Origin: Escherichia phage UPEC03
DNA length: 64,000 nt
Strand: one strand, 5' to 3'
Sequence record: MW250785
Position 1 is the first letter of the stretch. The number at the start of each line of letters is the position of its first letter. Below the pieces are notes generated by a model, which did not search any database, had not been told where the DNA came from, and worked only from the letters and a program-made list of their open reading frames with translations. Positions 8,532-59,489 of the stretch are shown here, in pieces. The position numbers were made by a program, and so were the translations under genes.

Positions 8532-8608
8532 GGCCCTTTAGCTTAATTGGTTAGAGCGGGTGACTCATAATCGCGCGGTTGCTGGTTCGAATCCAGCAGG
8601 GGCCACCA
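8532..8608 (+). tRNA. tRNA-Met (anticodon CAU; could also be a lysidine-type Ile)
   Basis: Hand-folded cloverleaf. Acceptor GGCCCTT/AGGGGCC, anticodon loop CTCATAA, T-arm GCTGG-TTCGAAT-CCAGC, encoded CCA. There is one G-G mismatch at the top of the anticodon stem. Confidence 0.85.
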
Positions 8609-8613
8609 AATAC

Positions 8614-8689
8614 GCAGGTGTAGTTCAATTGGTAGAATATCTGGTTTCCATCCAGATTGTTGAGGGTTCGAGTCCCTTCACCTGCTCCA
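8614..8689 (+). tRNA. tRNA-Gly (anticodon UCC)
   Basis: Acceptor GCAGGTG/CACCTGC, anticodon stem TCTGG/CCAGA with loop TTTCCAT, T-arm GAGGG-TTCGAGT-CCCTT, encoded CCA. Confidence 0.9.
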
Positions 8690-26016: not shown

Positions 26017-28263
26017 TTAGATTTTGACTTCTTTTTCTTCCAGGACGATTTCACATTCGAATGATGTGGTTTCCCAGACTTTCCAGAAATCGGATGGAAT
26101 ATTATCTTCTTTCGGAAGAATATCTTTTGCAGCGATAGAAACTTTGGTTTCTTCGAAGTCCAGATCCGCGAACCATGCATGGGCTACTACAACACCGTAC
26201 ATTACGCGACTTAAACGGGCATTCAGTTTACGGACTTCCTGAATCGTTGCCTTTGTCTGCTTATCAAGATACTCGACTACCTGATCTTTGTCAAGCGCAT
26301 CCAGTTCAGATTTCACCTGATCGTAAGCCCACAGGATAATCAGGTCGCCGTTGTTCAGTTTCTTCTTACCTTCGTCACGTTTCGCGACGGTAGCCGCTAC
26401 AGCAGGAAGGGAGGAAACACCCTTGACTTTCACGTTCAGTTCTTTCGACATGTAAACATCAGTCGATTCTGTGCGCTCAACCTTCGGAGAGAACCCGTAA
26501 TCACGAATATCCTGTTCAGACAGCCATTCACCCGCTGCATCACCAAAGCGCTGTTTCAGCCCTTCTGCGTTGCGCAGTCCGATCGCGTTGTCACGGAAGA
26601 ACTTCATAACCTTCTGACGGCCTTTCAGGATTTCCAGACGCACGTTATCAGTCACGAACTCTTTACCGCTTAACCCGCGAGTCATGCCACGGTTAACCAG
26701 AGGCAGAGAGGTAAAGTCTACCAGTACCGACATACGGTCATCACCGATTTTTTCCAGCGGCTTGATAGTCAGGCCAGAAGCGCGAAGGTTTTTCAGTGTC
26801 GGAATATCAGTTTCCAGCGGCAGAACTTTCACGTTCACGATACCATCTTTAACGATGGTGAAGTTACGCACCTGCTTAGTTTCGATTTTTTCCGGCAGAC
26901 CGAATTCTTTCTGTTTGCTTTCTGGGATAGTCACATACCCTTCCAGATCCGTGTTGATGGAAATGTTAGGACGGGAACTGTTACCCACCAGATGTTTAAC
27001 CGATACTTTGGTTGTGGTCTGGGTAAATTTCGGTGTCCAGACTTCATGCGCTACCATTTGCGCCGCCAGTGCTTTACGTTCTTCTGGGATTGCAGCGTTT
27101 GCGATCTGTTCGGTCAGTTGATCCAGTGTATCATCTTCTTTCTGTACAGTCTGACGGCCTGTGCGGTTATACGCCCAGTGCTCAGAAGACAGGTCGATCA
27201 CTGTGTCAGTTTGTGCCAGCAGTTCGAGCGCATCAACCAGAGTGAACGCGTTTTCGTCTGGAACCATGTTGTAATCAATACCATCAACGAAACGCTGTGA
27301 TGGATCTACAACAGCCTGTGCAATCAGGTCTTTCGCGTTGGAGTAGTCCTGTTTGGTAAAGCAGTTGTCATACGCCTTGATCAGACGGACATCACCCAGC
27401 TTTTGAAGCACTTTCCATGCCAGATCAGGGTTCATTGTGTGCAGTGCATGATAAAGCACGACATACAGAACTTGCTGTTCGCTGGCGATGTTCGGATCGA
27501 ATCCGTCAACATCATTAATCGCGTTTTCACCCAGCGCCCAGATGTTTTTGATGTGTTCTGGAACTAGCACAACACCGTTTGCAGCGTTCAGGACATACAC
27601 GCACCCTTCGTCCAGGTAGATCGCATGGGTAGCATCAGCAACTTTGACTTCGATACGCGCGGAAGTCTGCGCGGTGATGATTTCGTTAAATGCTGGTTCG
27701 TATGCGTCGAAACCTTCAACGAATTTGTGCAATGCGTTGGTTGCTTCTGCCATTTTTTCCAGCAGAGGACGGTTTACATAATAACCGTATTCCAGGAACG
27801 CGATACTGTTGAAAGTCAGTGGCAGAACCGCACACGCTTTCAGAATATCATCGGTACGCCAGCAGTTATCATAACCATCAGTCAGGAAGATCAGGCTGTT
27901 CAGGTTGCCGTTTTCAGATTGCAGATCGGTAGCGATTTCCGCAGCCAGATTCAACGGCTCAACAAAGCCAGTACAACCCGTAGGTTTCAGGTAACGGTCG
28001 ATAGCCGCGCAGATGTTAGACAGGTCAGAGACATTGCTAACCTTCTCACCACGGAACACCGTGCCGTAATCGCCTTTGCTGGAGAAGTACAGGATCGAAA
28101 CGGTGTCATCCTGTTTAACCAGACTCGCCAGATTTGCTTTCAGGTGTTTACGGATCTTAGGCAGTTCGTTGTACATTGAACCGGATACGTCACACACGAA
28201 AACGTGGTTTGTCGGGGTTGGCTTCGATACAGCGTTTTTGAATTCGATATTTGTGATTGACAT
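26017..28263 (-). CDS. von Willebrand factor A (vWA) domain protein with complete MIDAS motif
   Basis: 748 aa. N-terminal vWA with DVSGSM (DxSxS), TGCTGF (Thr) and IFLTDG (Asp). About 550 aa of unassigned C-terminal sequence. Confidence 0.8.
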   Translation of the reverse strand: MSITNIEFKNAVSKPTPTNHVFVCDVSGSMYNELPKIRKHLKANLASLVKQDDTVSILYFSSKGDYGTVFRGEKVSNVSDLSNICAAIDRYLKPTGCTGFVEPLNLAAEIATDLQSENGNLNSLIFLTDGYDNCWRTDDILKACAVLPLTFNSIAFLEYGYYVNRPLLEKMAEATNALHKFVEGFDAYEPAFNEIITAQTSARIEVKVADATHAIYLDEGCVYVLNAANGVVLVPEHIKNIWALGENAINDVDGFDPNIASEQQVLYVVLYHALHTMNPDLAWKVLQKLGDVRLIKAYDNCFTKQDYSNAKDLIAQAVVDPSQRFVDGIDYNMVPDENAFTLVDALELLAQTDTVIDLSSEHWAYNRTGRQTVQKEDDTLDQLTEQIANAAIPEERKALAAQMVAHEVWTPKFTQTTTKVSVKHLVGNSSRPNISINTDLEGYVTIPESKQKEFGLPEKIETKQVRNFTIVKDGIVNVKVLPLETDIPTLKNLRASGLTIKPLEKIGDDRMSVLVDFTSLPLVNRGMTRGLSGKEFVTDNVRLEILKGRQKVMKFFRDNAIGLRNAEGLKQRFGDAAGEWLSEQDIRDYGFSPKVERTESTDVYMSKELNVKVKGVSSLPAVAATVAKRDEGKKKLNNGDLIILWAYDQVKSELDALDKDQVVEYLDKQTKATIQEVRKLNARLSRVMYGVVVAHAWFADLDFEETKVSIAAKDILPKEDNIPSDFWKVWETTSFECEIVLEEKEVKI

Positions 28264-30205: not shown

Positions 30206-30234
30206 AATGTATCACTATCCTGGTCAGTATGCAA
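30206..30234 (-). promoter_or_regulatory. Sigma70-type early promoter; -35 lies in the last codons of the HNH gene
   Basis: - strand TTGCAT (30234-30229), 17 nt spacer, TACATT (30211-30206), leader ACCGAAACGAAAC. Confidence 0.6.
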
Positions 30235-30760
30235 TGTTTAATTTTGCAAATTTACCAAAATGTTTTATCGCTTCCCGATCGTATGCTTTTGCAGCCTCGT
30301 ATTCGTCACGATAGGAACCGATATGTTTAACCTTGCCGTCAATCTTTATCTGTGCAATGTAACGTATTCCAGTAGGTTGATCACGTACACATACACCCTT
30401 GAATCGACTGGTTGCTACTCTTCGTTTAGTCCGGTTCTGACAGTTTCGGGATTGATCCGCTTCACGCAAGTTATCAATCCCGTCGCCAGCCTCAACACCA
30501 TTTTTATGATCAATCACATCAGGCAGTTTTCCGGTTGCAACGTAGTAGATGATTCGATGACGTAGATATCCTTTGCTTTTGAAATAAACGCGGGTATATC
30601 CTCCTTTAATCTTCGAACCTACTTCCTTTCCGATCAAGTCAGAACGTTTGTGTGACGTTCGTATAATTGTCCCCGTTTGTATATCAACAGAAACAGTTTT
30701 AAGGAATTCGTCAATTCCTTTCTGTTCTTCTTCGATTGTTCTTAGTCCGTTGTGTGACAT
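30224..30760 (-). CDS. Free-standing HNH homing endonuclease with AP2 domain (paralog 2 of 3)
   Basis: 178 aa. IDHKNGVEAGDGIDNLREADQSRNCQN and FKGVC..RYIAQIKIDGKVKHIGSYRDEYEAAKAYDREA. Overlaps the methyltransferase 3' end by 19 nt. Confidence 0.8.
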   Translation of the reverse strand: MSHNGLRTIEEEQKGIDEFLKTVSVDIQTGTIIRTSHKRSDLIGKEVGSKIKGGYTRVYFKSKGYLRHRIIYYVATGKLPDVIDHKNGVEAGDGIDNLREADQSRNCQNRTKRRVATSRFKGVCVRDQPTGIRYIAQIKIDGKVKHIGSYRDEYEAAKAYDREAIKHFGKFAKLNIAY

Positions 30761-31665
30761 AACACCTTCTTGATTTGTTTTGCTATAGCCTCGATTACTG
30801 GTATTGAAACAGAATTACCTGCTTGTTTATACGCTTGCATCTTGCTTTTGTTGATAATAAACGAATCTGGGAAACCCTGCAAACGAAAACACTCACGGGG
30901 AGTAAGTCTTCGGGGGTTCTTTCCTTCCTGCAATACCAGACATTGAACACCATCTTTATAGTAATTTGCAGTGATAGTCCCAGTGTGCGTAGAATCGCTT
31001 GTGACGGCCTGATAACCGAAACCCTTACCGTTTGCCTTATTTCGTTCCTTACGCTCTCTAAAGCCCTTCCATGCGTTATCTGACAGGGTGAACGAATCAT
31101 CAGCATCTTCGAGGATGTCGCCTACGCGTGTAGGGGTACGCGGGGGAACCGGAAACGAAAAGAATACATCATCCAGGAAGCAGACAATAAACACGCGTTC
31201 CCGTCTTTGGGGTAGTCCGAAATCCTTTGTGTTCAGGCGTTGATAGAATACGTTATATCCTTCGGCCTCCAGAAGCCCGTAAATCGTTTTAAACGTCTTC
31301 CCCTTGTCATGGGTTAGCAGTTCAGGCACGTTCTCAAAGAACAACACACGGGGCTTTTTAGCGCGTATAATGCGGAGGATTTCGAAGAACACCGTACCGC
31401 GTACATCATCAAAGCCCAGTTTCAATCCGGCTTTACTGAACGCCTGACACGGGAACCCCGCGAGCAGGATATCATGATCAGGTACTTTGTTTTCATCAAT
31501 GGCGAATAGATCACCCTGTAGGTTATCATCGCCCCAGTTTTCGATATATGTTTGCTGTGCGAACTTGTCGATTTCAGACGTTAAAAGGCATTCGACACCG
31601 CCGAACGCCTTATCAAATCCTAATCGAACCCCGCCCACACCAGCGCAGAGGTCAATTATTTTCAT
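30742..31665 (-). CDS. DNA (cytosine-5)-methyltransferase
   Basis: 307 aa. Motif I DLCAGVGG, IV GFPCQAFS, VI FFENV, VIII QRRERVFIV, X GNSVS. Confidence 0.9.
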   Translation of the reverse strand: MKIIDLCAGVGGVRLGFDKAFGGVECLLTSEIDKFAQQTYIENWGDDNLQGDLFAIDENKVPDHDILLAGFPCQAFSKAGLKLGFDDVRGTVFFEILRIIRAKKPRVLFFENVPELLTHDKGKTFKTIYGLLEAEGYNVFYQRLNTKDFGLPQRRERVFIVCFLDDVFFSFPVPPRTPTRVGDILEDADDSFTLSDNAWKGFRERKERNKANGKGFGYQAVTSDSTHTGTITANYYKDGVQCLVLQEGKNPRRLTPRECFRLQGFPDSFIINKSKMQAYKQAGNSVSIPVIEAIAKQIKKVLCHTTD

Positions 31666-32164: not shown

Positions 32165-33162
32165 TTGTAATACCCCACAACATGATCGCGGTATACGCGT
32201 TCGATGAAATCGTTCCAGAATTCGCGGTCAACTTCTTTCGGATATGTTGAAATCGCTGCAAGCCGTTCGACTTCGCCCATGACTTCTTCCAGCTTTTCCT
32301 GTACGGTTGCGAACGGTACGCCGCCAGCTTTAACCAGTTTCAGGAATGCGCTATCAGGCAGAGGATAAACGATATCACCATCTTTGTAAATCTGGATCAA
32401 CTGCATACCACCGCGCAACGCGTGACTTAAAGCCTTCCAGTCGATGCCGTTGTTGGCTTCTGCTTGTCGTGCGCGTTCTCCGTATTCATCCCAGAGTTTG
32501 TACACTGACTTACGCATTTCATCGGCTTTGATCGTGAACTGGAATTTACGCCCCAGCACTTCATAGAAGTCCTGACAACCAGATTTCATTGTCGTGTCGG
32601 TAACGAATCGGCAGAACTCGTTTGTAGGGAAACGATTCTTGATGTCAGACACTTTCACTTCACGCGTATAGCGTTTCATATCTGGTGTGAATTCCTGAAT
32701 ACCACCGATCGTTTCGGTTTCTTTCAGTACATCGACAACTTCGCGCAGTGCAGCCAGTCGGGAACCTTTCACACCATATTTTGCGGCTTGCTTGCGAACA
32801 TAACCGAACAGGCCAGTTAGTTCAGTGGTGTAAAAACGCCAGCGGTTAGCGCGGATATACTGCCAGATTTCAGAGTTAGCGATCAGCTTGTCATCCGAAG
32901 CGTGAAGCATATCGAGCGCTACGGTATCACCATCACACGCAAGGCTGATAAACTTAGTCAGACTATACAACTGACGATCAACGTCGTCTACGGTGTTTTT
33001 AGAGCTTTTATCGCCCGTGCTGGTGTCGATAGACTTCTTCGCAGTGCCTAACAGGATTTCGCGAGGATGAGGGAGATAGATCCCTTTGTAGTCTTTATCG
33101 CTTGTTGGTGTTTCCAGTCCGTAAAGATGGGATCCAAAAATCATTTCAGTAATCATTTTCAT
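32161..33162 (-). CDS. Pol-beta-superfamily nucleotidyltransferase (RlaP / PF10127-like)
   Basis: 333 aa from ATG 33162. N-terminal GSHLYGLETPTSDKDYKG matches the GS..YG...SD.D nucleotidyltransferase signature. Confidence 0.6.
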   Translation of the reverse strand: MKMITEMIFGSHLYGLETPTSDKDYKGIYLPHPREILLGTAKKSIDTSTGDKSSKNTVDDVDRQLYSLTKFISLACDGDTVALDMLHASDDKLIANSEIWQYIRANRWRFYTTELTGLFGYVRKQAAKYGVKGSRLAALREVVDVLKETETIGGIQEFTPDMKRYTREVKVSDIKNRFPTNEFCRFVTDTTMKSGCQDFYEVLGRKFQFTIKADEMRKSVYKLWDEYGERARQAEANNGIDWKALSHALRGGMQLIQIYKDGDIVYPLPDSAFLKLVKAGGVPFATVQEKLEEVMGEVERLAAISTYPKEVDREFWNDFIERVYRDHVVGYYK

Positions 33163-33920
33163 TATACAAATCTCCAATAAAACCCTTTATGAGTTTTTCT
33201 TTTACCGTTACAGCATGAACTTACATGCCCTTTGTTATACCCCATTTCAACGGCTTCCACAATACCACCATTTAAAATAGTTTCTCTTTCTGTTTTGATA
33301 CATTTCATAATCAAAGGTTTTATCAATTCCGTCTTCTTTTGTGAAATATTAGCTAATGCAATTACATTTCTGATATCAGATTCACTCATTAAATCAGAAA
33401 TCTTCTTTCTTAACCATACATAGCCTTGACTTTTGGCAAGTTTGCCGGAGCAACATTCATGAATATGACTAGGGTTAAATCCACGCAATTTCATTTCTTG
33501 CCGACCGCCTAATATGATAATCTCGTCTCCTGTTTCAAGGTTGAATCCGACAACTGGAATTATTTGCCGTTCCGACATTTTCTTTCTCGCTTCTTTCGTG
33601 AATATTGTAAGAGATTTTAATTTTCTCGCGTCGCTCATTTGCGAAGATGTCGTTTTGTATTTCTTAGTATTATGAGACATACGGAAAAAAGCATATCTCA
33701 TTTTATCACCAGCATACTTAGCAAGTAGATGATGAGCAAGATAATGCTCTTTATATGTTAAATATACTAAATTTTCGGGTTCATCAGTACCACCTAATGA
33801 CTTAGCAACGATATGGTGTATATCATAACCGCGCTTTCTATACTTTTTCGAGTAACCTTTAGGTATATCTCTTCTTTTTGCCAATGTAATTAGTTGGTCG
33901 TAAATACGCTTATAGTTCAT
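33162..33920 (-). CDS. Free-standing HNH homing endonuclease (Mob-like) with repeated C-terminal DNA-binding modules
   Basis: 252 aa from ATG 33920 (SD AGGAG). HHIVAKSLGGTDEPENLVYLTYKEHYLAHH. Two repeats of CC(S/N)GK..K.(Q/H)G(Y/F).W. Paralog of 61728-62396. Confidence 0.8.
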   Translation of the reverse strand: MNYKRIYDQLITLAKRRDIPKGYSKKYRKRGYDIHHIVAKSLGGTDEPENLVYLTYKEHYLAHHLLAKYAGDKMRYAFFRMSHNTKKYKTTSSQMSDARKLKSLTIFTKEARKKMSERQIIPVVGFNLETGDEIIILGGRQEMKLRGFNPSHIHECCSGKLAKSQGYVWLRKKISDLMSESDIRNVIALANISQKKTELIKPLIMKCIKTERETILNGGIVEAVEMGYNKGHVSSCCNGKRKTHKGFYWRFV

Positions 33921-33947
33921 ACACTCTCCTTTAGGCGTATTTATCAC

Positions 33948-34550: not shown

Positions 34551-34590
34551 ATAATACAAAAGCCCTCACGCGAACGCAAGGGCTTTTTTA
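34551..34590 (-). promoter_or_regulatory. PeSL-type terminator/early-promoter stem-loop (class A)
   Basis: - strand hairpin about 34587-34558, -35 TTGCGT (34579-34574), 17 nt spacer, -10 TATTAT (34556-34551). Confidence 0.65.
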
Positions 34591-34598
34591 ATCTTTTA

Positions 34599-35654
34599 TC
34601 AGAGTCCCGTGAAAGCTACAACGATTTGATAGTGGTCATCGAAGAATTCCCCTTGTCGTTGTACGACCTCATGTAAGGGCATCCAGAACGCCTCTAACGC
34701 ATCGTCAGAACCGCCCATAATGCGGGGCAGACTACCATCATTGTTAGGCTCTAACTTGATGTACTGCGCCACAGTCGGTTTTGAGAAGTGTACGGAACGC
34801 TTCGGATGATCGAACAACATCGAATTGCGGATTGAACCACGGATAACCTTTTCAGGAACCTTGATCCGTACCTCTTCGAGCAGTTCGCGGATCGCACAAT
34901 CCAGGAACGTTTCATTTGCGTTTTTGTGTCCGCCGGGAAGGGCTAACGCGTCTTTACCTGGGGCGAACTTACGACGAATTACCAGCAGGTGATTGTTGCA
35001 CACAACCACACTATCACCCGTGCAACAGTTTAGCGCGTCGGGGTATGGGTAGTTTTTGAATTTCTCCAATTCGCTTTCCCATTTCTCGTATTCGTAGAAT
35101 AAACGCCAGAACGTGTCTTCCATCATCCATTTGTCGATATAATCAACGGTTGCTTGAGGAACAAAGCGCAACAGTTTCTTATCCCACCCGTTTTTATGGT
35201 TAAAGATAATCGGACGCAGATCGGTTGCTGATAGATCCTTGCCGTTAATCTGGACAGGTGGAACTGGTACGTGTGTCCATCCGAACGCTTTAAGCCAGTA
35301 TGAACCTGCATCTTTTTCGTAACCGTAGATAGCGATTTTGTCGCCTTTGGTTTCCCTGATAGCAGTACGAACAGAGGTTTTCCATTTCTCTTCGTTGTAA
35401 AGATAATCTGGAATGTGCTCAAACTGAACACGAACAACATCTTCGATCGGGAAGTTAGCGTTTAACCATGAGAAGATCATGGTTTGACGCTCACGCGCCG
35501 TCAGCGGGTTTAAAACGTTAGGGTAAGCATATGCTGAACCCAGAAGGATGTAAACGATCTTTGCTTCTCCGAGTGCTTTACGCACCATTGCTGCATGACC
35601 ATTATGGAAGGGTTGGAATCTGCCAATTACGACAGCTTTATCAAATTGTTTCAT
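34599..35654 (-). CDS. natV: Bifunctional NMN adenylyltransferase / Nudix hydrolase (NatV-like)
   Basis: 351 aa from ATG 35654. N-terminal GRFQPFHNGH (HxGH nucleotidyltransferase motif). C-terminal Nudix box GGHKNANETFLDCAIRELLEEV. Confidence 0.8.
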   Translation of the reverse strand: MKQFDKAVVIGRFQPFHNGHAAMVRKALGEAKIVYILLGSAYAYPNVLNPLTARERQTMIFSWLNANFPIEDVVRVQFEHIPDYLYNEEKWKTSVRTAIRETKGDKIAIYGYEKDAGSYWLKAFGWTHVPVPPVQINGKDLSATDLRPIIFNHKNGWDKKLLRFVPQATVDYIDKWMMEDTFWRLFYEYEKWESELEKFKNYPYPDALNCCTGDSVVVCNNHLLVIRRKFAPGKDALALPGGHKNANETFLDCAIRELLEEVRIKVPEKVIRGSIRNSMLFDHPKRSVHFSKPTVAQYIKLEPNNDGSLPRIMGGSDDALEAFWMPLHEVVQRQGEFFDDHYQIVVAFTGL

Positions 35655-35679
35655 AACGTGCTCCACGTTTAAAGGTTAA

Positions 35680-35778
35680 TCATAAAACAGACGCAATCAC
35701 CAATACACCAAGAAAACCGCCAATAAAGCCGAAGAATAGCGAAATGAAGATAGTAAGGATGATCTGTTTTATGTTCAT
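35680..35778 (-). CDS. Small hydrophobic protein (32 aa; below track cutoff)
   Basis: MNIKQIILTIFISLFFGFIGGFLGVLVIASVL, a single TM helix. Confidence 0.35.
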   Translation of the reverse strand: MNIKQIILTIFISLFFGFIGGFLGVLVIASVL

Positions 35779-35798: not shown

Positions 35799-35821
35799 AA
35801 AGCCCCCGCTCTGGGGGCTTT
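35799..35821 (-). terminator. GC hairpin after the SPFH gene
   Basis: AAAGCCCCC-(5 nt)-GGGGGCTTT with a weak T-run. Confidence 0.45.
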
Positions 35822-35827
35822 AAACCC

Positions 35828-36754
35828 TTATTTACGAGAATCGAAAATCACTTTACCAGCGTAATCAGAACCCATGACAGTTTGAGGTACACCGCCCTGA
35901 TATTTTTCCGCGATGGTCTGCTGAACATCAAGTTCTTTCCAGCGAATCATTTCTGGTGTAATGGTACGCTGCAACACGGCGTTCGCTTCGGCTTCTTTCT
36001 TAGCCGCATACAGACGGGCATCAGCATCACGCTCGTTAGCCTGTGCAGCATTGCTACGGGCTTCTTTATCGGCAATTGCCTGAACAACTGCCTGTTGAGC
36101 GATTTGCTCTTTACGTGCCAGTTCTGCTTTCTCTGCGTTCACCTGTTCTTCACGAATTTTCGTGTTTTCAACCTGCTTCTTGATCGCTTCCGGCAGGTCG
36201 ATATCCTGCAAGAATACCTGTTTCACGGTGTAACCGTAAGGGCGGGCATACTCTTCAACTTCCTGCTGGATCGCGATCTGTAGCTGGCTTTGAACTTCTG
36301 CATTATACAGATCCTGTGCTTTCGGTACAGATTTACCGAACTCACGGACAGTTGACAGAAGTTTTTCAGTCACATATTTATCCAGCGCCTGATCCTGACT
36401 ACCCGCATTGATACGGTTGATCGGGGCTTTGCTACCATCGAACTGTAACATCACGGTCATATCCACAGTGGATTTGAATTTATCCTGGGACGGAACCTGC
36501 AATTTGTCAAACTTCATTGCGATGTCTTTGGTGTTGAACACCTCGAAATCAGCCAGTGGATTTACCAGGTGGAAACCAGGCAGAACAGGCTTCGGTGAAA
36601 CTTTACCCATGAAGGTTTGAGTTTTTACCGTACCATCCTGAACGATAGTGTACGAGTTCGGAACCAGCCACAGAGCGGCGATTACGCCCAGAGCGATCAG
36701 TGTGGTTTTCTTCGGGTTGTTTACGATAGTGTTTAAGTTCATCATTATTTCCAT
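35828..36754 (-). CDS. SPFH / band-7 (prohibitin/HflC-like) membrane protein
   Basis: 308 aa. N-terminal TM helix, SPFH core and an Ala/Glu-rich coiled-coil tail. Start could be 36745 or 36742. Confidence 0.75.
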   Translation of the reverse strand: MEIMMNLNTIVNNPKKTTLIALGVIAALWLVPNSYTIVQDGTVKTQTFMGKVSPKPVLPGFHLVNPLADFEVFNTKDIAMKFDKLQVPSQDKFKSTVDMTVMLQFDGSKAPINRINAGSQDQALDKYVTEKLLSTVREFGKSVPKAQDLYNAEVQSQLQIAIQQEVEEYARPYGYTVKQVFLQDIDLPEAIKKQVENTKIREEQVNAEKAELARKEQIAQQAVVQAIADKEARSNAAQANERDADARLYAAKKEAEANAVLQRTITPEMIRWKELDVQQTIAEKYQGGVPQTVMGSDYAGKVIFDSRK

Positions 36755-36780: not shown

Positions 36781-36808
36781 ATTCTATCATCACTTTTTCG
36801 CTTGTCAA
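36781..36808 (-). promoter_or_regulatory. Sigma70-type early promoter
   Basis: - strand TTGACA (36808-36803), 16 nt spacer, TAGAAT (36786-36781). Confidence 0.6.
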
Positions 36809-39006: not shown

Positions 39007-39211
39007 GATTAGCTCGCTCCACCGCTACCGCATCACGAACAGCATCGGTGATTTCATTTTCAACGAAATCCAGGATATCCGCTGTAATATCGTCGATACA
39101 GGATTGATTGTAGTTACGTGAATCAGGATCATCATCTTCGGCATAATCCTGATACGCTTCGCCCAGTTGTTTCAGCTTGTGTTTTAACAGCTTTTGTTCT
39201 TGCGGTCTCAT
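38999..39211 (-). CDS. Acidic hypothetical protein (70 aa)
   Basis: ATGA-coupled to the macro-domain gene. Confidence 0.5.
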   Translation of the reverse strand: MRPQEQKLLKHKLKQLGEAYQDYAEDDDPDSRNYNQSCIDDITADILDFVENEITDAVRDAVAVERANHD

Positions 39212-39705
39212 GATAAATCCGCCTTATGTGGATCAACCGATGGATCGAAGTGAACAACGATGATTGGATAATCACCCGTACACTCGTCGATAATGGCGCT
39301 AATACGCAACCAATCGCCACCAGCAAGCCCCGCACCGATAAGAGGGGTAATGATAGGCAATTTTTCAGGAAACGCACTGGCGCGTTCTACGGCGCTCACA
39401 AAGCATGATCGGATTGCGTCATAATCCACTTGCGGGCCAGTACCCCAGAATTTAAACTGAGTGTAGGCATTGAAGACAATCTGACCTTCTTCCGTCATGT
39501 AGATGGAGTTAGTGCCTAACTTACGCTGGTCTCCTTTCATCGTCAATGCATCAATTTTGAACGCACCAGGGATTTTGTGCTTCACTTCTTTAGCAATACC
39601 CGCACCCATGTTGCAATAACAGTTACACCCATGAATCAAGTGTACTTTTCGTTTCAGGAACAACTCTACAGCGTTCCCTTTGATTTCTTTAATAATCATT
39701 TTCAT
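39208..39705 (-). CDS. Macro domain (ADP-ribose binding/hydrolase) protein
   Basis: 165 aa. HGCNCYCNMGAGIAKE and PLIGAGLAGGDW match the macro-domain phosphate-binding loops. Confidence 0.75.
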   Translation of the reverse strand: MKMIIKEIKGNAVELFLKRKVHLIHGCNCYCNMGAGIAKEVKHKIPGAFKIDALTMKGDQRKLGTNSIYMTEEGQIVFNAYTQFKFWGTGPQVDYDAIRSCFVSAVERASAFPEKLPIITPLIGAGLAGGDWLRISAIIDECTGDYPIIVVHFDPSVDPHKADLS

Positions 39706-39787
39706 CACCTGTATAGTGGCGGTAAGCCAGCACAGCCAGCCCCGCGATCACAACAATAACACACATTAAGATATAACCTGTGTTCAT
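39689..39787 (-). CDS. Small TM protein (32 aa; below track cutoff)
   Basis: MNTGYILMCVIVVIAGLAVLAYRHYTGDENDY. ATGA-coupled to the upstream mini-ORF. Confidence 0.3.
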   Translation of the reverse strand: MNTGYILMCVIVVIAGLAVLAYRHYTGDENDY

Positions 39788-43019: not shown

Positions 43020-44366
43020 TTAAAAGTTCTCTTCGACGAATGCAGCCAGTCGCCCACGATATACGGTATCCAGGATCACATGACTTGAATGACCGTACTC
43101 TTTAAGTTTTTCAACCGCATACACAAAGCCGTTGTTAACAGCAGTGTTGCGCGGGTTGTCAATCTGTTTAATGTTCCCGCATAGTATCAGAAGGGTGTTC
43201 TCACCGCAACGGGAAATGATGGATTTGATTTCGTGATTGCTCAAGTTTTGACATTCATCAACAATCAGAACCGAACCTTTACCCGGATCAGGATGCCCGA
43301 TTGAGCGCCCACGGAAGTAATACAGGCTAGGGAACTGGACAACGTTTTTCTCCAGCAGCCCTTCTACGTATTTGTCAACTTCCGGTTGATCCTTAAACAG
43401 AATGTTCAGGCTCGTAATACATGGTTCTACAGCAGGACGCAGTTTTTCGCCAAGAGTACCAGGTAAGAACCCGATTTCGCCCGACAGAGGGCTATCTGCC
43501 TTGACATACATCAGGTTTGCGAAGTGTCCCGCGTTTACCATGTGCATTGCACCAGCAACAGCCAGCATGGTTTTACCTGAACCCGCCGCGCCCATGATGG
43601 TCACAACGTCATTGTTTTTGTCCAGAATAGCATCAACGAATGACGCTTGCAGAGCATCGCGAGGCTGAATTGTTTTCATCAGCTTACGCTTTAACGCCTG
43701 TTCGTGCTTAATAGGCAACACTTCAAGCTGAAACTCTCCAGCATTCACCACACGCCCTACAATCTCACCACACGATAGAATGTATTGGTTAGGGTAGAAA
43801 TCCGCGTCAGGAAGCGATGAATACGTTATAACGGCAACAGGCCCGACATACTCCAGGACTTCAACAGTTTCCCAGAACAGAGGCAGGTCGATATAACCTG
43901 AATACAACACATCACTATCTTTCAGCGAGTCATCGCCAGTGTATTGAAGAACCGAACAACCTTTAGACATCGCGATCAACAGCATGTTAATGTCACGAGT
44001 CACCAGAGTTGCGCCCTGCTGAATACAAGTTGCAATGATCCGCGCATCCTGTTTATCCAGAGGGAATTCTTCGGTGCCGTCATAATCGACGATTTTCAGT
44101 GTTACGCTTTCCGGTACTGCTGGGTTCGATAAGTTTAACGAAACCCCTGTTTGGGTAATTGCTTCATAATTTTGTCCCAGGATTGCTTTGGACAAAAGCC
44201 GGATCGCCAGTCGTGCTTCATGAGCGGTTCGCTCTTTGCTTTTCAGGTGATCCAGTTCTTCCATCGTTGCAGCGGTGATAATGATTTCGCTGTCAGGTTC
44301 GATGTAAGAATAGATTGAATATGGGTTACTAATCAAAACATTGGTGTCTAATACGTATTTTGACAT
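43020..44366 (-). CDS. phoH: PIN-domain / PhoH-like ATPase fusion
   Basis: 448 aa. N-terminal PIN (YVLDTNVLI). Walker A GAAGSGKT and Walker B LIVDECQN. Confidence 0.85.
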   Translation of the reverse strand: MSKYVLDTNVLISNPYSIYSYIEPDSEIIITAATMEELDHLKSKERTAHEARLAIRLLSKAILGQNYEAITQTGVSLNLSNPAVPESVTLKIVDYDGTEEFPLDKQDARIIATCIQQGATLVTRDINMLLIAMSKGCSVLQYTGDDSLKDSDVLYSGYIDLPLFWETVEVLEYVGPVAVITYSSLPDADFYPNQYILSCGEIVGRVVNAGEFQLEVLPIKHEQALKRKLMKTIQPRDALQASFVDAILDKNNDVVTIMGAAGSGKTMLAVAGAMHMVNAGHFANLMYVKADSPLSGEIGFLPGTLGEKLRPAVEPCITSLNILFKDQPEVDKYVEGLLEKNVVQFPSLYYFRGRSIGHPDPGKGSVLIVDECQNLSNHEIKSIISRCGENTLLILCGNIKQIDNPRNTAVNNGFVYAVEKLKEYGHSSHVILDTVYRGRLAAFVEENF

Positions 44367-52503: not shown

Positions 52504-52812
52504 TTAATCGAATTTTTCTGGCAACTGGTCTACAAGTGCTTGAGTTTGATGAAGTTCTTCACTCAATTTATCACGATAATGAACCAATTCGCGGGTTCTT
52601 GATGCGGAATAGCTAATGAGTTTATCAGCGGTAGCGGTGTAACCGTAACCAGCACACGCGATTTCCAGTTTTGCGTTATCGCCGTTAGGTACGCGGATAT
52701 GAGCATACGCCAGCAAGTTTTTAACCGCTTGCAACAGTTCATGATCTTCTTTGCCGATGATAAACTGGTTTGGTTCTGCTGAATCCATATACAGTTCTTC
52801 GTCTTTGTTCAT
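52504..52812 (-). CDS. Hypothetical protein (102 aa)
   Basis: ATGA-coupled to the DUF262 gene. Confidence 0.55.
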   Translation of the reverse strand: MNKDEELYMDSAEPNQFIIGKEDHELLQAVKNLLAYAHIRVPNGDNAKLEIACAGYGYTATADKLISYSASRTRELVHYRDKLSEELHQTQALVDQLPEKFD

Positions 52813-53342
52813 TTTGCAGCCTTATACATTTCCAGGACGCGGTTCATGTGATCTTGAGATTGAGGCACACCCGCGAAGTTCAGTTTGATGAAGAATTCCA
52901 GACGATCCTTTTTGGTGCATTCATCCAGCCCCAGGGCAGGTAATGAAATGTTTTCAAAGGCTCGTTGTTCGTGTCGTGGTATTTCGTCCCAGAACAAACG
53001 GGAACCGTCCGGCATAGGAATCCCAATTTCACCTTCGTAGACTTTGATAATCGTCGTCAGGCGTTGTTTGCCGTCGATCACTTCTACCCAATGGGTTTCG
53101 TTGAACTGACTATCAACCGCGATCGCAATGATACCGCAAGGGAAACCACTGATCAGGGTAGTCAGAAACGCATCTTGCTCTTTCTGCGTCCACACATAGG
53201 GGCGCTGGTAAGATGGATTCAGATCCAGATCTTTATTCTTCCACCAATGCAGATAACTCCCAACCATGATCGCGTGATCGCGACTGCGAAAAGTTAACTG
53301 ATCGCGGATACGGTTATGAACCGGAATATCATCTTTAGACAT
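52809..53342 (-). CDS. Stand-alone DUF262 (ParB/GmrS-like NTPase) domain protein
   Basis: 177 aa. NPSYQRPYVWTQKEQDAFLTTLISGFPCG and VIDGKQRLTTI (DGQQR motif). No DUF1524/HNH nuclease half. Confidence 0.7.
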   Translation of the reverse strand: MSKDDIPVHNRIRDQLTFRSRDHAIMVGSYLHWWKNKDLDLNPSYQRPYVWTQKEQDAFLTTLISGFPCGIIAIAVDSQFNETHWVEVIDGKQRLTTIIKVYEGEIGIPMPDGSRLFWDEIPRHEQRAFENISLPALGLDECTKKDRLEFFIKLNFAGVPQSQDHMNRVLEMYKAAK

Positions 53343-53932: not shown

Positions 53933-54315
53933 TTAGGCAATGCCCCGAAAGACAGCAGCCCCATACGATGATCGTTATCTGATTCACCAGTGCTGAATTC
54001 AAATTCTTCACCGCTGATACTGATAGCGCGGAAACCGTCTTTCAGGTATGGCAACAGATACAGAGGGATCAGCATCATGTTTGAATCGTCGCTCCACTTA
54101 CGGAAGCCCAGATTTTTCATTTCTTCCAGCGTCAAATCATTCGGATCGACGGGTTCGAAATCAGGGGAAGCGTAAAGGCGTCCAGGCAGATCGCGAATAT
54201 TTTTCACGGTGAATGAATCACCCCAGGACTGATACACGGTAGGTTCAGCGGCGCGGGTTGCGGTAGCCAGGAGGATCATTTGACAGATTTGAAAAGTTGT
54301 TGCTTTTGGTTTCAT
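53929..54315 (-). CDS. Hypothetical protein (128 aa)
   Basis: ATGA-coupled to the Nudix gene. Confidence 0.55.
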   Translation of the reverse strand: MKPKATTFQICQMILLATATRAAEPTVYQSWGDSFTVKNIRDLPGRLYASPDFEPVDPNDLTLEEMKNLGFRKWSDDSNMMLIPLYLLPYLKDGFRAISISGEEFEFSTGESDNDHRMGLLSFGALPK

Positions 54316-54725
54316 GATGTATATCCCACAAGTTTAGTCAGTAAATTCCCCATAGTCTTACGCGCATGATCGCGGATCTGGCTATACGGAACATATTTGA
54401 AGTCATCCATTTCAGTAATGGTTCGACCATTTTTAACGAAGGTTGAAGCACAAACACATTTTTCTGCTTCGGGGTAATTATTACCCACATATACGAATAA
54501 CACAAGCTCTTTTTTACTCGTATAATCAATCAGACCCAGGCTCAACAGTTCGTGTTGTTCAACTACAACGCCCGTTTCCTCGAAGCATTCACGGATAGCA
54601 GCATTGATCGGGGATTCGCCTTTTTCGATATGCCCCTTTGGGATGTCCCAATGAGGCGTTTCGGTTGCGTGGCCCATTAAAACGCTGCCGTTATTCAGGA
54701 AGAGAATACCAGCAGACCGTTCCAT
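54312..54725 (-). CDS. Nudix hydrolase
   Basis: 137 aa. Nudix box GHIEKGESPINAAIRECFEETGV. Confidence 0.85.
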   Translation of the reverse strand: MERSAGILFLNNGSVLMGHATETPHWDIPKGHIEKGESPINAAIRECFEETGVVVEQHELLSLGLIDYTSKKELVLFVYVGNNYPEAEKCVCASTFVKNGRTITEMDDFKYVPYSQIRDHARKTMGNLLTKLVGYTS

Positions 54726-58758: not shown

Positions 58759-59294
58759 TTTTGCGTTTTCCGTGGAGTAGGCACGATCACCCGTCCGTCG
58801 ATCTCAATTTCCATGTGAGCGAAGTTGAACATCGTCATACAGGATACGGCTTCATCCGAATCATTGGTATACATAAGCTCAAGCTCTCCGAGGTTGGAGG
58901 GCCAAGCGCCATAGAAGCGAAATGTCGCTACAGTTTTTGACTGCGAGTTATCCAGGATATGCAAAGCCATTGCCTGTTGTGGTTCACTCCAACGCACGGA
59001 ATCGAAGGTGTTAAAATCGACAGTACCGAGCATCCAAAGGTAAACCCCAAGATACGATCGCAGTTCTTCATCAACAGCAAAACGAATAGTCAGTGGATCG
59101 AACTCCATTGCAGATCCTGGGATCTTCCCTCGAATCATTGGGTTCAGTGGGACATCCGTAATTGGAATGTTGATAGAAGGTAGTGTAACACCCTGAACTT
59201 GTAGTTTCAACCCTTTTACATAATCATTGTCAGGAATATCTAACATGAAGTTAGTAGGTGAAATCTGGTTCAGGATCATAGCAGTTGTATTCAT
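58755..59294 (-). CDS. 3: Tail completion / tube terminator protein gp3
   Basis: 179 aa from ATG 59294 (SD GGAG). gp19-family pattern (MEFDPLTIRF...WPSNLGELEL). ATGA-coupled to gene 1. Confidence 0.65.
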   Translation of the reverse strand: MNTTAMILNQISPTNFMLDIPDNDYVKGLKLQVQGVTLPSINIPITDVPLNPMIRGKIPGSAMEFDPLTIRFAVDEELRSYLGVYLWMLGTVDFNTFDSVRWSEPQQAMALHILDNSQSKTVATFRFYGAWPSNLGELELMYTNDSDEAVSCMTMFNFAHMEIEIDGRVIVPTPRKTQK

Positions 59295-59321: not shown

Positions 59322-59332
59322 ATCAAGACCGT

Positions 59333-59489
59333 GAGCGAAGCGAACACACGAACGAAGTGAGTGTTATGTACGATGTACTGTTTATAATATTTATATTTTA
59401 TATATAGAGAAAACAGTACATTTCCGTATACTTTTTATACAATCGTTAACTATCCGTCTTCGCTTCGCTTGACGGAACTCGCTTCGCTC
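59333..59489. repeat. Inverted repeat GAGCGAAGCGA / TCGCTTCGCTC flanking an AT-rich core
   Basis: Arms at 59333-59343 and 59479-59489, each next to a GATC. Further CGAAGCGAA-type sub-repeats lie in both arms. Confidence 0.7.

Follow-up and report, generated by a model that had tools for sequence, protein, structure and literature searches.

A natV-like NMN adenylyltransferase-Nudix gene in a Pseudotevenvirus genome, very likely the Nmnat half of an unlinked two-gene NAD+ salvage pathway

The 64-kb window, by which we mean the whole stretch of DNA analysed, contains on its minus strand a 351-aa ORF at 34599..35654 (stop codon included), which the ORF list and the profile matches identify as an NMN adenylyltransferase-Nudix fusion. 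We annotate it as a natV-like gene encoding a bifunctional NMN adenylyltransferase / Nudix protein of the ADP-ribose pyrophosphatase type, based on Pfam, NCBIfam PRK05379, PDB, PHROG and the KVP40 NatV protein. The gene had been placed at these same coordinates in an earlier note on this DNA, and the placement is exact: a Shine-Dalgarno sequence (GGAG, 35661..35664, minus strand), read directly from the sequence, precedes the ATG start with a 6-nt spacer. An in-frame GTG at 35666 adjoins the Shine-Dalgarno sequence and is an unlikely start.

Family matches cover both halves of the protein. In Pfam, CTP_transf_like (PF01467) matches residues 9-63 (6.2e-08) and NUDIX (PF00293) matches residues 215-336 (5.3e-14), both above the gathering cut-off. 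The 'bifunctional NMN adenylyltransferase/Nudix' models of NCBIfam (PRK05379) match from end to end, the best one at 1.2e-73 with an alignment spanning positions 3-351 of the 354 in the model; its score of 248 bits stays below the equivalog cut-off of 397 bits, these models being narrow and lineage-specific, and the protein thus does not reach the NCBIfam equivalog thresholds of the bacterial NadM-Nudix subfamilies. NF010365 (nicotinate-nicotinamide nucleotide adenylyltransferase) matches residues 1-189 and phrog_395 matches over the full length (1.5e-96). The natV-like identity is far beyond chance. It is also not a novel feature: GenBank records of relatives name the gene bifunctional NMN adenylyltransferase/NUDIX hydrolase, and it is an already known, ordinary and catalogued enzyme of RB43/GAP161-type T4-like phages.

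The N-terminal NMNAT domain, a HIGH-type nucleotidyltransferase, takes up approximately residues 1-189 (35088..35654, minus strand; NF010365 and PF01467), and the C-terminal Nudix domain approximately residues 205-351 (34602..35042, minus strand; PF00293, with the Nudix domains of 2qjo and 2qjt aligning colinearly). We aligned the protein with the enzymes of Synechocystis (2qjo) and Francisella (2qjt) and with the KVP40-group orthologs of phages VH7D and nt-1. In this five-protein alignment the HxGH ATP-binding signature GRFQPFHNGH (residues 11-20, 35595..35624, minus strand) is invariant as GRFxPFHxGH, including H17 and H20, and so is the second NMNAT signature SxTxxR, here SATDLR with T144 and R147 (residues 142-147, 35214..35231, minus strand). 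The N-terminal domain thus carries both the (H/T)xGH and the SxTxxR motif of HIGH-type nucleotidyltransferases. The Nudix box GHKNANETFLDCAIRELLEEVRI (residues 242-264, 34863..34931, minus strand) was located in the same alignment and in the pairwise alignments with 2qjo and 2qjt. It follows the catalytic pattern Gx5Ex7REUxEE, with G241/G242, E248, R256, E257, E260 and E261 invariant in all five proteins, as is the FDxPxRS motif downstream of it. The final G of the canonical box is replaced by R, as in the Synechocystis enzyme, and this unusual ...EExR(L/I) ending is common to both proteins. The earlier note had described an N-terminal HxGH nucleotidyltransferase and a C-terminal Nudix box; both are confirmed by Pfam, by the motifs and by the colinearity with 2qjo and 2qjt. 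The natV protein retains every catalytic motif of the crystallised NadM-Nudix enzymes in intact form, and invariant motifs and homology together suggest that it has NMNAT as well as ADPR pyrophosphatase activity.

The best solved relative is Synechocystis slr0787 (PDB 2qjo), which aligns with natV residues 4-349 (on 2qjo 7-338) at 2.7e-54 and 36% identity, followed by the NadM-Nudix enzyme of Francisella tularensis (PDB 2qjt/2r5w; natV residues 3-346 on 2qjt 6-342, 5.4e-45, 33% identity). The protein is therefore colinear from end to end with structurally characterised NadM-Nudix members. Whereas these bacterial enzymes serve cellular housekeeping or salvage, natV is a phage gene used during infection. 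Its counterpart in a phage is the biochemically characterised NatV of KVP40 (KVP40.0162), the Nmnat of the NARP2 pathway, which has 341 aa against 351 aa here, shows the same two-domain architecture and is 40% identical over 348 aa (E 6e-86). In the VH7D and nt-1 orthologs, taken as stand-ins for KVP40 NatV, the residues of the HxGH, SxTxxR and Nudix-box motifs do not differ from those found here. The natV protein is thus a homolog of KVP40 NatV, and the earlier proposal that it reproduces an NMNAT-Nudix fusion of this type is borne out by the identity and the conserved catalytic motifs. The two phages differ in host and genus (Vibrio and another genus for KVP40, Enterobacteriaceae here). The Nudix substrate of the Synechocystis, Francisella and KVP40 homologs is said to be ADP-ribose (work of Huang in 2008 and Lee in 2017).

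On the minus strand, natV and its neighbours form a block of early-type genes, in the order Macro-domain gene, tk, rI antiholin, DUF5856, SPFH/Band 7, a 32-aa ORF and natV; the block continues with two small ORFs, an HNH homing endonuclease and an nrdC.11-like nucleotidyltransferase of the RlaP family. Directly upstream lies the 32-aa, strongly hydrophobic ORF MNIKQIILTIFISLFFGFIGGFLGVLVIASVL (35680..35778, minus strand), which corresponds to gp214 in phage Banach and has no PHROG match, and before it the SPFH/Band 7 gene (35828..36754, minus strand; PF01145 at 2.6e-20, phrog_200), the upstream gene of a probable transcription unit. A sigma-70-like promoter match, TTGACA-16-(TG)TAGAAT (11/12), was found by a consensus scan upstream of the SPFH gene at 36781..36808 (minus strand). 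Promoter-like matches in the region are as common as expected from shuffled sequence, so that this candidate early promoter for the SPFH gene, the 32-aa ORF and natV is suggestive only. A terminator-like hairpin, G+C-rich with a 13-bp stem that includes 6 G-C pairs, lies 11 nt past the natV stop codon (34558..34587, minus strand; consensus pattern match only). From these pattern matches, natV is probably expressed early and co-transcribed with the SPFH gene and the 32-aa ORF. Another G+C-rich hairpin, this one without a T-run, follows the SPFH stop codon at 35799-35821.

The block is kept in Pseudotevenvirus and in a relative with 66% identity, and is looser in Aeromonas phage 44RR2.8t, where 5.8 kb separate the SPFH gene from natV. 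In both this phage and KVP40, natV lies in an early-gene region near an nrdC.11-like nucleotidyltransferase. Apart from that gene the block is absent from KVP40-like phages: there SPFH, rI, tk and Macro genes are not adjacent to natV as they are here, and an SPFH gene is missing near it altogether. A functional module of SPFH and natV was considered and rejected, given that the two are adjacent only in Pseudotevenvirus-like phages; for the same reason we regard the adjacency as local synteny.

Two further genes of this region deserve mention. The Macro-domain protein (166 aa, 39208-39708, minus strand; PF01661 at 3e-06, phrog_335 'phosphatase' at 2e-60) is encoded on the strand of natV, 3.5 kb further upstream, as a second ADP-ribose-processing gene in the early region; its position next to tk is shared by Pseudotevenvirus as a whole and by Aeromonas phage 44RR2.8t. 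The HNH / I-HmuI-NUMOD homing endonuclease (33162-33947, minus strand) is located between the small ORFs 3' of natV and the nrdC.11-like gene, whose predicted start it overlaps by 16 nt. The segment can be aligned in Banach and phi1_146015, where a homing endonuclease is annotated as well. It is missing from most other close relatives, which cover only 79-81% of a 5-kb query, and thus probably represents a mobile element inserted recently.

In KVP40 the NatV enzyme works together with a nicotinamide phosphoribosyltransferase (Nampt, NadV). The earlier note saw no Nampt-like ORF of about 480 aa in the window, and tblastn with human NAMPT, the Nampt of a relative (ECW1_0038) and KVP40 NadV agrees: no Nampt was found in any of the six frames of the 64 kb, the best match having E = 0.043. 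The human probe is a sound one, as it is identical to PDB 2gvg_A over residues 1-491, and in the phage collection it matches 2,019 records, among them the close relatives EC-W1, Olmo and IME-CF2 over the full length at 36-37% identity. Megablast against 50,697 phage records assigns the window to the genus Pseudotevenvirus (RB43/GAP161/leB-like T4-type myoviruses), with matches in phages of Cronobacter, Enterobacter, Klebsiella and Citrobacter; the closest records are approximately 96-97% identical to it. Enterobacter phage CYPEBC003 encodes a NatV protein identical in sequence to the one described here, and the window follows its circular record colinearly from 140895 across the end of the record to 28434 (93-99% identity). 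That genome has an intact Nampt of 477 aa (72406-73836), 72.4 kb away from natV and lying 44 kb past where the window ends on the right. In EC-W1 the Nampt gene is flanked by the RNA ligase/srd region on one side and the dam/nrdD region on the other. The CYPEBC003 Nampt shares 49% identity with KVP40 NadV (E 1e-145), among solved structures its closest relatives are without exception nicotinamide phosphoribosyltransferases, and the Nampt of the relatives is 37% identical to human NAMPT.

This distance is not exceptional. In KVP40 itself natV (KVP40.0162, 94507-95532) and nadV (KVP40.0264, 138214-139707) are separated by 42.7 kb and approximately 100 genes, compared with ~72 kb in Pseudotevenvirus, and in the KVP40-like phages nt-1 and VH7D no Nampt was found within 12 kb on either side of natV. 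Unlinked NatV and Nampt genes are the norm. Since the two KVP40 genes are unlinked, a 64-kb stretch with natV at its centre would not include Nampt in that phage either; with the NARP2 genes this far apart in KVP40 and in Pseudotevenvirus, the missing Nampt here is no evidence against its presence in the genome. KVP40 also contains KVP40.0259 (134159-135052), a 297-aa 'hypothetical protein' for which the depositors flag a match to PF04095 (NAPRTase family). It is encoded next to two radical-SAM genes, 3 kb upstream from nadV, and may represent another phosphoribosyltransferase-like gene in truncated form.

Co-occurrence of the two genes was assessed in two collections. GenBank phages contain NatV in 61 records at at least 80% identity and in 115 at 60-80%, and Nampt in 62 records at at least 90% identity and in 117 at 60-80%; the counts agree almost one-to-one across ~177 records. 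One of the Nampt records, KKP_3664, probably represents a partial genome, as it comprises only 61.6 kb. Among the megablast matches listed, all 18 of the 18 close relatives also carry Nampt. In IMG/VR, where the best NatV match has 97% identity, 6 contigs with a close NatV reach a length of at least 144 kb, and each of these also bears Nampt.

These results bear on the possibility that NatV is a true orphan, that is, that the isolate lost or never had Nampt and that the enzyme makes NAD+ by adenylating host NMN, derived for instance from the reaction of the host NAD-dependent ligase or from imported NR/NMN. The absence of a Nampt homolog from the 64-kb window is what speaks for it. However, in all relatives examined Nampt is intact and occupies a conserved position that the span of the window does not reach, the window stopping 44 kb before it; the NatV and Nampt counts are nearly one-to-one over the ~177 records; and a published survey from 2022 found no phage with NadM that lacked NadV. 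We have rejected this explanation because of the Nampt present in all relatives examined, and consider it extremely unlikely. From the two alternatives offered in the earlier note, a partner elsewhere in the genome or reliance on the host NMN supply, the first is supported, with Nampt ~72 kb off in every close relative examined, and the second is without support. Likewise, the implied anomaly of an orphan NatV dissolves, given the intact gene at that distance in these relatives. Genus-wide conservation strongly argues that this isolate has a Nampt outside the window, and that the apparent orphan status of natV reflects the limits of the window rather than a property of the phage.

Rebuilding of NAD+ during infection is an end result that NARP2 has in common with two other pathways, NARP1 (Adps and Namat) and NARP3 (PnuC and NadR). 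We searched for these with E. coli K-12 Prs (for Adps), NadR and PnuC as tblastn probes, a search that very divergent homologs could escape. The complete CYPEBC003 genome has no Prs/Adps-like, no PnuC-like and no additional NadR-like gene at E<=1, and in the window Prs and PnuC gave chance-level matches only (E 0.42 and 0.27, respectively). The sole match of E. coli NadR is the NMNAT domain of natV (NadR residues 67-199, 2.6e-06), without the kinase domain; the HIGH-type NMNAT domain of the NARP3 NadR is distantly related to that of the natV protein. NARP1 is rejected on the missing Prs/Adps-like gene and on the classification of the Nampt of the genus: GAP161 Nampt (JN882287_00240, same genus) is given as 'Nmnat-associated', and not as Adps-associated, in Table S2 of the NARP paper (bioRxiv 10.1101/2024.02.11.579819). 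NARP3 is rejected since both the PnuC-like transporter and the NadR kinase domain are absent from the window and from the CYPEBC003 genome. The Adps/Namat pair that the earlier note suggested searching for is accordingly not seen: tblastn finds no Prs/Adps-like gene in either sequence. As Prs/Adps-, PnuC- and additional NadR-like genes are lacking in the CYPEBC003 genome, NARP2 is the only NAD pathway detected.

Taken together, the natV gene is very likely the Nmnat half of the known, unlinked two-gene NARP2 NAD+ salvage pathway in Pseudotevenvirus. Early expression, the enzymatic activities and the counter-defence effect are what we infer for this phage, as follows. Transcription of natV with the SPFH gene and the 32-aa ORF would start early from the sigma-70-like promoter and end at the hairpin, if the pattern matches are taken at face value. 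The phage Nampt, expected ~72 kb off and outside the window, would convert nicotinamide and PRPP to NMN (as suggested by its identity with KVP40 NadV, 49%, and with human NAMPT, 37%). The HxGH domain of natV would then form NAD+ from NMN and ATP, in line with its invariant motifs and characterised homologs, and the Nudix domain would split ADP-ribose into AMP and ribose-5-phosphate, the latter of which the host Prs could return to PRPP. With the nicotinamide and ADP-ribose steps combined, both NADase cleavage products would be recycled. By analogy with the KVP40 gene pair, NAD+ would be kept up in infection, which may blunt Thoeris, DSR, SIR2-HerA and SEFIR.

The literature agrees with this proposal. 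According to the NARP preprint, KVP40 Nampt and Nmnat (NARP2) abolish Thoeris and DSR2 protection and raise NAD+, and Nmnat is also present in 94% of the phages with a KVP40-like Nampt (bioRxiv 10.1101/2024.02.11.579819). The statement in the earlier note that KVP40 NatV pairs with Nampt (NadV) and counters NAD-depleting defence is therefore in keeping with what is published there, NARP2 countering Thoeris and DSR2.

A role that is mainly metabolic should also be weighed. Indeed, the KVP40 pathway was originally interpreted as metabolic. The pathway would then supply NAD+ for replication, nucleotide metabolism and NAD-consuming phage enzymes (for instance ADP-ribosyltransferases), irrespective of whether host defences are present. 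Such a role would fit the surroundings of natV, an early metabolic region that is conserved and includes tk, the Macro-domain gene and the nrdC.11-like nucleotidyltransferase, and also the fixation of the NatV/Nampt pair across the whole genus, unlike many anti-defence genes, which are patchy. In addition, the preprint describes a rise of NAD+ by NARP2 even in cells without a defence system (bioRxiv 10.1101/2024.02.11.579819), though the same work shows the KVP40 pair directly abolishing Thoeris and DSR2 protection. We consider a mainly metabolic role to be a minority view with perhaps some merit. As both roles are compatible, it differs from the counter-defence reading of NARP2 in emphasis and not in mechanism.

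The second half of the protein raises a related matter. It might be argued that the Nudix half is dominant: the main task of the protein would then be to remove ADP-ribose, or immune signals derived from ADPR, with the NMNAT domain in a secondary role. The invariant Nudix box and downstream FDxPxRS motif are consistent with this, and the window also encodes the Macro-domain protein and a second, NudE-like Nudix hydrolase, which suggests an investment in ADPr processing. The NMNAT motifs are just as invariant, however, and the strict co-occurrence with Nampt is sensible only if NMN adenylation matters; dominance of the Nudix half is thus quite improbable. Another idea, unlikely but less so, retains NARP2 and adds that the Nudix half may be required for counter-defence, perhaps together with the Macro-domain protein (39208-39708) and the NudE-like Nudix (54315-54725). 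It could act by turning the ADP-ribose that defence NADases set free into ribose-5-phosphate for PRPP resynthesis or by destroying ADPR-derived immune signals; the searched text of the NARP preprint does not separate out what the Nudix domain contributes. If this were true, NARP2 would recycle both NADase products and not merely consume host PRPP.

Beyond correct annotation, natV matters little. It marks the phage as a likely NARP2 carrier, predicted by analogy to be resistant to Thoeris, DSR, SIR2-HerA and SEFIR. Some practical relevance follows from the fact that Pseudotevenvirus phages of Klebsiella, Enterobacter and Cronobacter are phage-therapy candidates.

Several other features of the window were observed. 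The NudE-like protein is a monofunctional Nudix hydrolase of 137 aa (54315-54725, minus strand), 90% identical to Banach gp257; together with natV this gives the phage two Nudix domains, and phage Matisse likewise has two (PMC4591321). A C5-cytosine DNA methyltransferase gene (PF00145, 3e-92; 30742-31665, minus strand) overlaps the downstream HNH_3 endonuclease ORF at 30224-30760. At 52809-53342 (minus strand) a protein of 177 aa with a GmrSD_N (DUF262) domain is encoded (7e-20); this domain forms the N-terminal part of type IV restriction enzymes, but here it is phage-encoded. A PIN-PhoH fusion protein is found at 43020-44366 (minus strand), with PIN_4 at residues 4-142 and PhoH at 233-432, and a 748-aa protein, hypothetical in relatives, at 26017-28263 (minus strand), in which only an N-terminal von Willebrand factor A domain is recognisable. 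Adjacent genes for tRNA-Met(CAT) and tRNA-Gly(TCC) lie at 8532-8689 (plus strand). Finally, a dispersed repeat of approximately 110-160 bp is located between divergent ORFs at 59332-59487, and it also matches CYPEBC003 at 132144-132299 (88%) and 59092-59202 (91%).
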